A stretch of DNA of 47,335 nt from Candidatus Harrisonbacteria bacterium RIFCSPHIGHO2_02_FULL_40_20 (lineage in GTDB: Bacteria > Patescibacteriota > Minisyncoccia > UBA6257 > WO2-44-18): NCBI GenBank assembly GCA_001818675.1, contig MHJF01000023.1, positions 1-47,335 of the forward strand. Direction: 5' to 3'. A program made the position numbers and the translations under genes. Shown in pieces: positions 16,842 to 27,938 of the stretch (within the stretch, counting starts at the first letter, position 1; the number at the start of each line of letters is the position of its first letter). Under the pieces are notes generated by a model. It had not been told where the DNA came from. It saw nothing but the letters and a program-made list of their open reading frames with translations, and did not search any database.

Positions 16842-16913
16842 GAAGGCTAAACCCCGAATTTAAAATTTGGGGTCGCCCGATCAAAACGCAGTTTTGATTT
16901 AGGGAGGTGACAG
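16842..16913 (+). promoter_or_regulatory. Element-2 leader (variant II) upstream of a small-protein operon
   Basis: GAAGGCTAAAC, a variable hairpin, then CGATCAAAAC-GCA-GTTTTGATTTAGGGAGG, then the ATG at 16914. Confidence 0.6.
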
Positions 16914-17093
16914 ATGATGAATGTTATGTTGACGAAGCTGTTGGGATTTTTTCTGCTTCTTACTTTTGTGGTTTCTTTAACTGCCGCGATTTATGTTCCT
17001 TATTGTCGGAATAAATATAAGCCTAAGAAATCAAAAAATAATAAGGATGATGATTGCGGTTGCGGCGATAAAGGAGGTTGTTCTAATGACTGA
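16914..17093 (+). CDS. hypothetical 59-aa membrane protein with basic and Cys-rich tail
   Basis: Below the ORF-track size cut-off. GGGAGG SD lies 6 nt upstream. Sequence: MMNVMLTKLLGFFLLLTFVVSLTAAIYVPYCRNKYKPKKSKNNKDDDCGCGDKGGCSND. Confidence 0.5.
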   Translation: MMNVMLTKLLGFFLLLTFVVSLTAAIYVPYCRNKYKPKKSKNNKDDDCGCGDKGGCSND

Positions 17094-17301
17094 TCAAGAA
17101 GTTGTTAAGCGCGCTACGGACTTTGCTCGATCTTATAAGGGCCAGCCCTACAGTGAATCTGAATTTAATGAGCATTTATATTATGCTTTAGAGTCTTTAG
17201 TCAAAGCTGGCGCCACTGACGAACAGATTAAGCTTTTTAATAAAACGGTTAATAATCTGCCGTTAAAAGGAGGAAGTTTTAATTCGTATAGCGGAGATTA
17301 A
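17086..17301 (+). CDS. hypothetical 71-aa soluble protein
   Basis: ATG preceded by AAAGGAGG. Overlaps the upstream small ORF by 8 nt. Followed by a strong terminator. The ORF-track start at 16993 is upstream and not supported. Confidence 0.55.
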   Translation: MTDQEVVKRATDFARSYKGQPYSESEFNEHLYYALESLVKAGATDEQIKLFNKTVNNLPLKGGSFNSYSGD

Positions 17302-17310
17302 CTAAGATGT

Positions 17311-17340
17311 CCTCCGACGTTACGTCGGAGGGCTTTTTTA
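17311..17340 (+). terminator. intrinsic terminator after the small-protein operon
   Basis: CCTCCGACG-TTA-CGTCGGAGG followed by CTTTTTTATT. Confidence 0.8.
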
Positions 17341-17370
17341 TTGGTCAATAAATTGTTATATTTCTTATTA

Positions 17371-17498
17371 ATGGATCCCGTTAGAGGCAATTAAAATAAT
17401 GATGGCAAACAATACGATTCAATATATTAAAGCGTCGGTGGTTCTTAAAATGGCCGAGTTACGGTCGCCTTTGGCGACCTGCCTCTAACGGGATGGAT
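17371..17498 (+). repeat. Element-1 copy 3; its terminal ATGGAT is the pheS start
   Basis: Same termini (ATGGATCCCGTTAGAGGCA ... TGCCTCTAACGGGATGGAT) and same TTAAAATGGCCGAGTTACG block. The 7-bp hairpin at 17463-17479 has an unrelated sequence but the same position. Confidence 0.8.
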
Positions 17499-22071: not shown

Positions 22072-22490
22072 GGCGCCTCCCATGGGAATTGAACCCAACG
22101 GTCGTCTTTTTCTCTGATCCAGATATCGGGTGTAATAGTGCTTTGAGGATGCTTGAATAGAGTAACAATGAAAGAGCCGCAATTGTTGAAGTTCCAGAGA
22201 GTTTGTCCGGTGTCGGCGATATCGTCCACTACTAAAGTTTTTTCCCAGAATTCTGGCATATAAAATGACATAAAACCAAAATTGTTGGGAAGACCTGGTT
22301 TTCTTTCTCTATCGGGACAAAGAAGATGAGAGAGTTTTACAGCTAGTATGACTCCTCCCCGGGGCGGCCCGTAAATATATTTAAATTTTTTACCCCACGC
22401 TTTTATAGTGTCAGCAATTTTTCGAGCGTCTACCTCAAATTCTTCCCAGGTATAAACCTGAATGCCTGCATTGGGTGGCTGGTTAGCCAT
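22068..22490 (-). CDS. gpt: xanthine-guanine phosphoribosyltransferase-like
   Basis: 140 aa from MANQPP. The layout is collinear with E. coli Gpt: YTWEEFEVDARKIA, PRGGVILA, PRPP motif LVVDDIADTGQTL, and C-terminal DRWVQFPWE. Confidence 0.8.
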   Translation of the reverse strand: MANQPPNAGIQVYTWEEFEVDARKIADTIKAWGKKFKYIYGPPRGGVILAVKLSHLLCPDRERKPGLPNNFGFMSFYMPEFWEKTLVVDDIADTGQTLWNFNNCGSFIVTLFKHPQSTITPDIWIREKDDRWVQFPWEAP

Positions 22491-22588
22491 GTGTTGCCTC
22501 CCTAAATCAAAACGAAGTTTTGATCGGCTATAGCCCGATGGGCTCGCCCATTTAGGTGCGAACAATTTGCAAAGTAAATTGTTTTAGC
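22491..22588 (-). promoter_or_regulatory. Element-2 leader (variant I) upstream of gpt-guaB
   Basis: The reverse complement matches 27282-27377 with 4 substitutions in the shared ~92-nt block. It ends GATCAAAAC-TTC-GTTTTGATTTAGGGAGG before the ATG. Confidence 0.65.
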
Positions 22589-22699
22589 TTTTTCAAATTT
22601 CAACGAACAACGCATTTTAGCGTAGCATTTTTAGTATAGCTTCGCAATAACTTTCTCTTTCTTTTAACTCTCTTTTTTGTTATAATAAAGAAATCTGCA

Positions 22700-26374: not shown

Positions 26375-26403
26375 TTGACTTTTTACATAGCTAATGCTAT
26401 TAT
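26375..26403 (+). promoter_or_regulatory. candidate promoter of the Nudix gene and its leader
   Basis: TTGACT-N17-TATTAT, about 22 nt upstream of the Element-2 leader. Confidence 0.6.
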
Positions 26404-26424
26404 CTCTGGGGTTGTTTAAAAATT

Positions 26425-26491
26425 GAAGGCTAAACCTCGAATTTTCGAGGTCGCTCGATCAAAACCTCGTTTTGATTTAGGGAGATGGCAA
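26425..26491 (+). promoter_or_regulatory. Element-2 leader (variant II) upstream of Nudix hydrolase
   Basis: GAAGGCTAAAC, hairpin CCTCGA/TCGAGG, then CGATCAAAAC-CTC-GTTTTGATTTAGGGAG. Lies downstream of the promoter at 26375-26403. Confidence 0.65.
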
Positions 26492-27037
26492 ATGGCCAAA
26501 GTTTGCGATCACACGAGCGTGGGTTTGCTTTTATCATATCAGAATAACAATGATTGGCAGTTACGTTTTTTAATGATAGAGCGGCATAATTATCCTCAAG
26601 CAATAGCTTTGCCAGCTGGGCATTGTGATGGCGACGATTTCTATAAAGCTATACGGCGTGAAGGTAAGGAAGAAGTCGGGATAGATCTCGGAAATTTAAA
26701 TTTGAATTTTGTTGCAAGAATAGATAATCCCTGTAAACGTCAGGATGGATCTCACCATATTTGGGGAATTTTTGAGGGATATTTTTATAGTGGTACTGTA
26801 GCTGCTGGCAGCGATGCTAAAAGATTTTTCTGGGCCACTCTTGACGAGTTAAGAAAATTTTCTCAAAGAACCGAATTTTTTATGAAGAAATATTCTGTTG
26901 ATTGGCAGGACGTTGGTAAGTTGACTAAGGCCATTTTTGGCGATCCACAGAATCCTCAAGTTGATCCGGATTGGCAAAAGGAAATGGGCCTTGAGCCGGT
27001 GTGGTATTATATACTGAAGAAATTGATGTATATTTAG
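26492..27037 (+). CDS. Nudix hydrolase with C-terminal extension
   Basis: Starts at MAKVCDH, after the shared hairpin-SD leader. Nudix box-like GHCDGDDFYKAIRREGKEEVGI. The ORF-track start at 26423 lies inside the leader. Confidence 0.75.
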   Translation: MAKVCDHTSVGLLLSYQNNNDWQLRFLMIERHNYPQAIALPAGHCDGDDFYKAIRREGKEEVGIDLGNLNLNFVARIDNPCKRQDGSHHIWGIFEGYFYSGTVAAGSDAKRFFWATLDELRKFSQRTEFFMKKYSVDWQDVGKLTKAIFGDPQNPQVDPDWQKEMGLEPVWYYILKKLMYI

Positions 27038-27160: not shown

Positions 27161-27281
27161 TCAGAGTTTGAATTATAAAGAAACCACGGACTTTAGTTCG
27201 TAGAATTTTATTGGTACGGGGTTGCGGAGGCGGTTTTTATTTTCTATAATCTTATTACGTTCTTTTACATAAATAAAAAGA

Positions 27282-27377
27282 CTAAAACAATTTGCTTTGC
27301 AAATTGTTCGCCCCTAAATGGGCGAGCCCATCGGGCTATAGCCGATCAAAACCCCGTTTTGATTTAGGGAGGCATAT
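27282..27377 (+). promoter_or_regulatory. Element-2 leader (variant I) upstream of dCMP deaminase
   Basis: 10-bp hairpin AACAATTTGC/GCAAATTGTT, TCGCCC-CTAAAT-GGGCGA, GATCAAAAC-CCC-GTTTTGATT, then AGGGAGG and the GTG. Confidence 0.65.
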
Positions 27378-27938
27378 GTGGATAAAACCGAACGTCCGCA
27401 GTGGGACGAAATTTTTCTTTTAATGGCCGCGGTGTTTTCATCTCGGGGGTCTTGCGATCGTTTACTGACTTCCTGTTTTTTAGTGAAGAATAAACGGATT
27501 GTTGGAGTTGGTTATAATGGCGCGGTGGCCGGTCTTTCTAATTGTGATGAAGTGGGGCATTTAATGGTTGATAATCATTGCGTTCGGACTATTCATGGCG
27601 AAGATAATGCTGTAAATAATGCCGTTGCTGACTTAGATGGCGCCACGGCTTATGTTATTGCCACTCCTTGTTTAGATTGCGTTAAGAATCTTTTACAAAA
27701 AGGGATTAAGCGCATTGTCTATGTGGGTATTTACGCAAATTCTAAAGGATTAGAGCATATTGAGAGTTTTTGTAAGGAAAAGGCCGTGGTTTTAGATCAT
27801 TTCAGCGATCCAAGAATTCTTCTGTCAATCTTGCGAAAAGTGCTTAATCGTTTGCGTGGTCCGGGGGGAATTTTAAAAGATATTCCCGAAGAAGAAATAT
27901 TTTTATTGTTAAGGGGCAATAATAATTTTTCAACTTAA
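27378..27938 (+). CDS. dCMP deaminase (ComEB/Dcd-type zinc deaminase)
   Basis: GTG start 6 nt after GGGAGG. Contains WDEIFLLMA, HGEDNA and PCLDC zinc motifs. Confidence 0.88.
   Translation: MDKTERPQWDEIFLLMAAVFSSRGSCDRLLTSCFLVKNKRIVGVGYNGAVAGLSNCDEVGHLMVDNHCVRTIHGEDNAVNNAVADLDGATAYVIATPCLDCVKNLLQKGIKRIVYVGIYANSKGLEHIESFCKEKAVVLDHFSDPRILLSILRKVLNRLRGPGGILKDIPEEEIFLLLRGNNNFST

Follow-up and report, generated by a model that had tools for sequence, protein, structure and literature searches.

What is the short structured sequence that lies between a putative promoter and the start codon of a Nudix hydrolase gene in Candidatus Harrisonbacteria, and why does it recur before other genes close by? 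The window that we analysed, a stretch of 47,335 nucleotides, is core chromosome of Parcubacteria type and carries genes for ribosomal proteins, RpoA, MreB/C, PheST, GyrB, NusG, L11, DnaE and FtsH; NCBI assembly GCA_001817995.1 contains this DNA as well. An earlier note, made from the sequence alone, had read the Nudix leader at 26425-26491 as one of four copies of an RNA leader that suggest a real regulon. Our comparative analysis leads us to a different answer: the Nudix leader probably represents one copy of a short mobile repeat (about 53-90 nt) that is not autonomous and occurs widely among Patescibacteria. We base this view on empty orthologous sites, a relic of insertion in rplK, sequence identity of copies that ends where the flanks begin, the diversity of genomic contexts, covarying hairpins and a match between the centre of the element and its flanks.

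The leaders at 26425-26491 and 16842-16913 have the order of parts that the earlier note gave, namely GAAGG-CTAAAC, a hairpin, TCGC[C/T]C, GATCAAAAC-NNN-GTTTTGAT, TTAGGGAG and ATG. In the Nudix leader the first hairpin is CCTCGAATTTTCGAGG and the centre TCGCTC, after which GATCAAAAC-CTC-GTTTTGAT and TTAGGGAG lead to the ATG at 26492; in the leader at 16842-16913 the first hairpin is CCCCGAATTTAAAATTTGGGG, the centre TCGCCC and the start codon the ATG at 16914. The compensatory change proposed for the first hairpin of these two short-form copies is present (CCCCGAA../..TTTGGGG versus CCTCGAA/TTCGAGG). Equally real are the four copies of the module GATCAAAAC-N3-GTTTTGAT within 11 kb, found at 16879 (plus strand), 22525-22506 (minus strand), 26457 (plus) and 27344 (plus), for which shuffled sequences give an expectation of 0.05 by chance; a count of four was reached in 0/100 shuffles. 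The stem is invariant within the window while the 3-nt loop differs from copy to copy (GCA, TTC, CTC and CCC). A covariance-model search of the window with filters off returned the same four copies and no others in 47 kb, and the model found no further copy in ~20 kb more of the same genome on both sides, which gives a density of four clustered copies in ~67 kb. A search of Rfam 15 gave no match to the element, either at the gathering threshold or with E relaxed to 10.

On the plus strand, the short-form copy before the Nudix gene extends over 26430..26482 (53 nt; covariance model 68.5 bits) and comprises CTAAA (26430-34), hairpin P2 (26435-50), the centre TCG-CT-C (26451-56), hairpin P3 (26457-77), TTTAG (26476-80) and a terminal GG (26481-82), with a left flanking GG at 26428-29. 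The ribosome-binding site GGAG (26481-84) is made up of this terminal GG and a native AG, and together with the ATG at 26492 it occupies 26481..26494. The second short-form copy, at 16847..16904 on the plus strand (62.7 bits), precedes a small ORF of 59 aa and contains CTAAA (16847-51), P2 (16852-72), TCGCCC (16873-78), P3 (16879-99), TTTAG (16898-902) and GG (16903-04), flanked on the left by GG (16845-46) and followed downstream by a GGAGG site and the ATG at 16914. The covariance model placed two long-form copies, the 'variant I' of the earlier note, before the dCMP deaminase gene (27282..27369, plus strand; GTG at 27378) and before the phosphoribosyltransferase (PRT)-IMP dehydrogenase operon (22500..22587, minus strand; ATG at 22490).

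The promoter-like site that had been named, a sigma-70-like TTGACT-17-TATTAT motif, is found at 26375..26403 on the plus strand and has a TG extension in addition; a transcript from this putative promoter would begin about 15-20 nt before the element. The TTGACT and TATTAT hexamers can also be read by eye upstream of the Nudix gene of a relative (L049), and all four window copies have a promoter-like site on one side and a start codon on the other, although as a class such sites are in no excess over chance in the region (27 vs 23 expected). Public gene calls start the Nudix gene at TTG 26423 (26423-27037, 204 aa), so that the element is translated through; the correct start is likely to be ATG 26492, which yields a protein of 181 aa, 23 aa shorter than the public call.

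A GTTCTTTGAAA-like motif that resembles the rRNA antitermination boxA occurs at 22610-22598 (minus strand) and 27259-27270, as well as at 5796-5807 in L047 and 1927-1940 in L048; many leaders of the clade have it 5-25 nt before the ribosome-binding site, whether the element is present or absent. Because the motif is also found in element-free leaders, and hence is independent of the element, we rejected processive (nut-like) antitermination through it as an explanation. Between the small ORFs and pheS, positions 17231-17342 resemble the PyrR binding site of Rfam below threshold (36 bits vs a gathering score of 54), and the match ends in a strong terminator-like hairpin (17309-17333). Just upstream of pheS, a non-coding stretch of 128 nt (17371-17498) with a long-range stem, GGATCCCGTTAGAGGCA...TGCCTCTAACGGGATGG, shares 84-88% identity with L020 7931-8058 and with two places in L021, although the surrounding genomes cannot be aligned; it matches no Rfam family at threshold and may be another conserved leader or repeat.

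What the copies have in common becomes apparent in a wider sample. Two pattern scans recovered the motif from many Patescibacteria assemblies and metagenome contigs, and 17 distinct short forms, in which P3 was fixed by the search pattern, were aligned for the analysis of covariation. The element has the architecture RR-CTAAA-hairpin P2-TCG-YY-CGA-hairpin P3-TTTAG-RR, with CTAAA, TCG..CGA and TTTAG as its invariant pieces and CTAAA...TTTAG as terminal inverted repeats. In other words, it consists of two inverted 'CTAAA-hairpin-TCG' units around a joining dinucleotide, and the opposite strand fits the same template. Among the 17 short forms, 7/8 pairs of P2 have changed on both sides and 94% of cells are paired, while divergent covariance-model matches supply compensatory variants of P3 (GAACAAAAC/GTTTTGTT, GATCCACC/GGTGGAT, GAACATTTATT/AATAAATGTT, GAACTACC/GGTAGTT and GATCTTTGC/GCAAAGAT). 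Since the sequences of both hairpins vary and yet stay paired, it is pairing and not sequence that is under conservation. The folds are also more stable than those of shuffled sequence (z -2.4 to -3.1).

Both the RR outside CTAAA and the RR after TTTAG are complementary to the central YY. Alignment columns 42-44 and 72-74 are paired in 100% of cells (C-G in 11, U-A in 6) and columns 11-13 and 41-43 in 96%, and the covariation score of each whole structure tested was reached by 0/500 shuffles. Flank, centre and flank occur in three states, GG/CC/GG, GA/TC/GA and AG/CT/AG, and by hand count a perfect three-way match with the same RR on both sides is seen in 22/26 listed copies; the Nudix copy is GG/CT/GG, that is, it contains one G-T wobble. 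In both pairings the boundary of the element falls immediately 3' of the purine that is paired with the same central base.

This architecture also clarifies the relation between the two variants of the earlier note, which had raised the question of whether they are sub-classes of one family and had distinguished them by a different 5' module. They do belong to one family, but the notion of a different module has to be replaced by a nested 30-nt insertion and a different sequence of the first hairpin. 'Variant I' is a short form, with P2 as in the short copies of L020 and L035, that carries a clean 30-nt indel at the central dinucleotide, while 'variant II' is a short form with a different P2 sequence. 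In the deaminase long form the nested mini-element lies at 27312..27341 on the minus strand, as delimited by the 30-nt indel relative to short forms with the same P2. Its plus strand reads CC-CTAAAT-GGGCGA-GCCCATCGGGC-TATAG-(CC) and its minus strand GG-CTATA-hairpin-TCGCCC-A-TTTAG-GG; it is flanked by CC on both sides and occurs inside long forms only. From this layout we infer that the insert may be an element without P3, placed in inverse orientation at the central dinucleotide of its host element, so that landing in the centre of another copy would produce 'variant I'.

The expectation that the leader is conserved with its genes failed in every case, because 4/4 sites are empty in syntenic relatives (L044, L047, L048, L049 and L051). 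These relatives were obtained via the PRT and Nudix proteins. Gene order is kept in L047 (L11-NusG-GyrB, PRT-IMPDH and PheT-PheS-small ORFs), in L049 (NusG-L11-Nudix) and in L051 (GyrB-NusG-L11-...-Nudix-deaminase-Tmk), and the element is absent from all three at any of the four window positions. The PRT leader, which carries the long form in the window, is empty in L047 (TTGTTCTTTAAATAAAGGAGGTGTTGCCATG), L048 (...TTTTTAAGGAGGTGGCCAATG) and L044, the empty site reading ...AAATAAAGGAGGTGTTGCCATG or ...TTTTTAAGGAGGTGGCCAATG. At the small-ORF site, ...CAATAAGGAGGTGATTATG in L047 corresponds to ...GAGAAGG[element]GGAGGTGACAGATG in the window. The Nudix leader is empty in L049 (GTAATGAAAGGAAGCGGCAGATG) and in L051, with ...AATGAAAGGAAGCGGCAGATG and ...GAGAAAGGAAGTCACATG in the relatives in place of ...TTGAAGG[element]GGAGATGGCAAATG, and the deaminase site, filled by a long form in the window, reads ...GAAAAAGGATATTTATG in L051. 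L048 shares 86% identity with the window across gyrB, yet its PRT leader is without the element. When the element and one GG are taken out, an ordinary ribosome-binding site, AAGGAG(G), is restored. In both the Nudix and the PRT leader the start codon then stands 9 nt away, as it does natively, and the spacing from GG to ATG of the Nudix gene is the same in the empty L049 site. Formally, a gain read from this pattern of empty and filled sites would be inseparable from a precise loss.

A copy inside a coding region is found in two of these relatives. In L047 (2245-2324, minus strand) and L049 (1808-1886) the element lies in the 3' end of rplK, with the junction AATATGGGA[CTAGAA..TTTAGGG]GATAGAGGTGATTGAGTAG. 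As a consequence, the C-terminus of L11 now reads GLEITE*, of which the last five residues, LEITE, are encoded by the element, and the original end of the gene, GATAGAGGTGATTGAGTAG (IEVIE*), persists downstream of it. The L11 proteins of the window and of L051 have the uninterrupted end ...NMGIEVIE*.

The earlier note had stated that the regulatory reading would be refuted by a dispersed repeat that also occurs in non-leader positions, and in related genomes the element is such a repeat. Besides the coding region of rplK, it abuts the first base of a tRNA-Ala at the 5' end, lies about 450 nt upstream of a 23S rRNA and stands between convergent genes in L018 and L033; it also precedes genes for GlyRS, FtsA, MraZ and RNase III. 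In other lineages it is found in the loops of AT-rich hairpins (...TTTGC-GA[element]GA-A-GCAAA...), and the same loci contain many empty hairpins (stems of 9-14 bp) of the types GC-GAA-GC, GC-GGA-GC and GC-AGA-GC. Tandem arrays in L001 and L004 consist of adjacent units with a single common GG, which is expected if the element's own end is a target. Finally, copies in different genomes share 90-97% identity over about 95-125 nt while their flanks cannot be aligned, and the sole other segment of those contigs that aligns to the window is the unrelated 128 nt at 17371-17498.

Some observations on these loci stand apart from the argument. The AT-rich GC-GAA-GC (or GGA/AGA) hairpins occur at several sites each in L008, L011, L014, L032, L033 and L038, and some of those in L033 fall inside the stretch that matches the 23S rRNA gene. 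These hairpins may represent either a second family of repeats or a local type of terminator; outside the lineage of the window, the element lands in them by preference. In L042 (1534-1748) the element and about 17-27 nt of upstream flank are common to the PRT leader of the window (22498-22610), while past the element L042 has the same following gene as L034 2871-3078 (DUF7768-guanylate kinase); this arrangement reflects either copies acting as recombination points or a mobile unit that carries some of the upstream leader. Of L011 and L013, one contig is labelled Candidatus Oleincola secundus (Atribacterota) and is identical, in the region read, to the other, labelled 'Bacterium isolate M50B90'; it contains the Patescibacteria-type element, possibly a binning error. 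Several hits of the two large scans that showed no upstream element by eye, and hence were chance matches (L002, L003, L005, L006, L009, L012, L019, L023, L025, L028, L030, L036 and L041 among them) were set aside, as were 43 stretches of viral contigs that fit the pattern CTAAAAC-N(9-30)-GTTCGCCCGA; 0 of these were confirmed by the covariance model, and we regard them as chance.

Taken as a mobile repeat, the element enters at a purine dinucleotide, which afterwards stands on either side of it. Within the lineage of the window the target is the ribosome-binding site, AAGG^AGG, and because the end of the element (...TTTAG-GG) rebuilds GGAGG at the native distance, the gene survives. Other targets are GAA/GGA/AGA hairpin loops, the 5' end of a tRNA, the end or centre of another copy and, once, the end of rplK. 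We propose that the element probably moves as single-stranded DNA and that a trans-acting enzyme would recognise both hairpins. The cut sites would be set by the central YY(C), a putative guide that could pair with the RR of either boundary, following the logic of IS200/IS605 and REP/RAYT systems. If the element affects expression of the Nudix, deaminase or phosphoribosyltransferase genes at all, we would take this for a by-product or for co-option at a later stage. Neither gene content nor Pfam revealed a transposase in the 47-kb window, and a crude motif search of about 0.44 Mb of fetched loci found no Y1/HUH motif. A stronger version of this model is conceivable, albeit unlikely in our judgement: a miniature mobile element of an undescribed class, programmed by a 2-3 nt guide that chooses purine dinucleotides in exposed single strands (ribosome-binding sites, triloops, tRNA 5' ends) and rebuilds what was interrupted, and that has been co-opted in Parcubacteria as a portable translational control wiring nucleotide-salvage genes together. 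Our literature search returned no relevant description of an RNA motif, ribozyme or repeat of this kind in Patescibacteria.

The presence of the same RR on both sides would fit a 2-bp crossover or a target duplication by another type of recombinase equally well. Mobility might thus proceed through double-stranded DNA, by a recombinase with a 2-bp core (IS607-type serine or IS110-type) or by a DDE enzyme with a 2-bp duplication, the hairpins being incidental palindromes. The short terminal inverted repeats CTAAA/TTTAG are in line with such a route, and both the TTTAG-RR-CTAAA junction and the TCG-YY-CGA centre resemble inverted half-sites around a 2-bp core. However, hairpins that vary freely and yet stay paired imply that a single strand folds, the centre tracks the flanking dinucleotide across three states, which is more than a 2-bp crossover by itself demands, and there is no recombinase nearby in the window; we give this route a small chance. 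The perfect 9-3-9 palindrome with a variable centre, GATCAAAAC-N3-GTTTTGATC, which is invariant in the four window copies, might suggest instead a DNA operator bound by a dimeric transcription factor between promoter and start codon. Outside the window this 'invariant' stem covaries (GAACAAAAC/GTTTTGTT, GATCCACC/GGTGGAT, GAACATTTATT/AATAAATGTT, GATCTTTGC/GCAAAGAT), and compensatory change of this sort led us to reject a double-stranded operator as very improbable. Hardly any weight falls on a small self-cleaving or reverse-splicing RNA whose guide is paired to both cleavage sites: the architecture does resemble a three-way junction with invariant junction nucleotides, and the guide pairs at both boundaries in the same register, but no known ribozyme family in Rfam matches, no reverse transcriptase is in view, and the opposite strand is equally well formed, which suggests constraints at the level of DNA. 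An integron attC site (RYYYAAC...GTTRRRY, one bulged hairpin) is rejected, given flanks that are direct RR/RR, two hairpins and no integrase in view; so are TIGR/CRISPR guide arrays, since the copies occur singly at scattered places and neither a box C/D motif nor a Tas/Cas gene is present. A REP sensu stricto lacks support as well, since GTAG is missing 5' of the palindrome and the motifs here are CTAAA and TCG/CGA.

The reading as a cis-regulatory RNA leader, a riboswitch or protein-binding element that co-regulates nucleotide-salvage genes, deserves separate consideration. In this reading an on/off switch would arise from two alternatives for the central CCC, which would either mask the GGG of the ribosome-binding site or bind the GG(C) that lies upstream. 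The copies are indeed structured and fold better than shuffled sequence, all four in the window are placed between a promoter-like site and a start codon, and the two pairings of the centre are mutually exclusive and both supported by covariation. Moreover, nucleotide-related genes are over-represented downstream of the element in this lineage, at 7/13 (Nudix, two deaminases, phosphoribosyltransferase-IMP dehydrogenase, UMP kinase, DeoC and a guanylate kinase fusion). These observations stand, whereas conservation with the genes does not: orthologous leaders of the same genes are without the element in relatives. Its contexts elsewhere, before tRNA-Ala, 23S rRNA, GlyRS, FtsA, MraZ and RNase III, between convergent genes and inside rplK, also speak against this reading. 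The remaining 6/13 downstream genes are unrelated to nucleotides (acyl-CoA dehydrogenase, aldehyde dehydrogenase, an aminotransferase, a Cys/Met PLP enzyme and two unknowns), and Rfam offers no match. Predicted accessibility of the ribosome-binding site is alike in filled and in reconstructed empty leaders for the two leaders completed (0.40 vs 0.40; 0.43 vs 0.37), a prediction that speaks against sequestration of the site. Overall, we regard a cis-regulatory leader as improbable. Nucleotide-gene enrichment nevertheless counts against a purely selfish element, which would not predict it unless selection filters the surviving insertions. The enrichment could reflect co-option, or could equally arise if insertions survive only before dispensable metabolic genes; a regulatory role is thus a minority possibility and a secondary one.

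As a mobile repeat, the element shares properties with several known systems. Like REP/BIME/REPIN-RAYT repeats, it is short, multi-copy, hairpin-forming and non-coding, it forms clusters in alternating orientation, and it has a short conserved motif beside the foot of the hairpin. The working unit of a REPIN is two inverted hairpin units (PMC3337134), a layout that the inverted doublet of our element recalls. REP sequences depend on the RAYT enzyme in trans, and the same is proposed here. Unlike REP/RAYT systems, the element has a dinucleotide complementary from centre to flank, can land in a ribosome-binding site, a hairpin loop or even the end of a coding region, and has Patescibacteria as its host; we found no RAYT gene. 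Its subterminal hairpins, kept by structure, recall the ends of IS200/IS605 and palindrome-associated transposable elements. In IS608, a short guide on the 5' side of each hairpin foot pairs with the sequence to be cut: on the right this lies within the element, a few nt beyond the 3' side of the hairpin, and on the left it is the target in the flank. The element goes in 3' of its target, and its excision leaves a seamless donor joint (PMC3201880). The right end of our element fits this layout, and by analogy its pairs may take part in cleavage; the left pairing, in contrast, uses a guide 3' of P2 and not 5'. Further differences from IS200/IS605 are a single guide of 2-3 nt for both ends instead of two 4-nt guides, far shorter distances, and TnpA/TnpB, which we did not find for the element.

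Bacterial MITEs such as Correia/NEMIS, RUP and the Rickettsia palindromic elements end in inverted repeats beside which a short piece of the target is directly repeated, vary in presence and absence among relatives and are tolerated beside or within genes, all of which applies to the element described here. In this broad sense it behaves as a MITE: presence and absence are precise, terminal inverted repeats are accompanied by a short direct repeat, and the copies are more alike than their genomes. It differs from MITEs in that it is much smaller, its arms are defined by structure rather than by sequence, its target follows an internal complementary dinucleotide, and the interrupted ribosome-binding site is regenerated. 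With translational riboswitches it shares a structured 5' UTR that ends at the ribosome-binding site and one segment with two alternative pairings; unlike them, it is not conserved with its genes, precedes a mixed gene set and suggests no candidate ligand.

The candidate phyla radiation has tiny genomes, which are regarded as poor in repetitive and mobile DNA. A structured repeat that occurs across Saccharibacteria-like and Parcubacteria-like genomes would therefore be a new handle on their genome dynamics. At a practical level, the element misleads gene callers, as in the Nudix protein predicted with 23 surplus aa and in the replaced rplK C-terminus of two relatives, and comparative screens may take it for a riboswitch. 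If the internal dinucleotide is a true guide, this could be the smallest such system and, in principle, a reprogrammable one. Insertion into a ribosome-binding site that is regenerated in the process represents an unusual route to tolerance in gene-dense genomes, and such insertions could alter the translation of metabolic genes.
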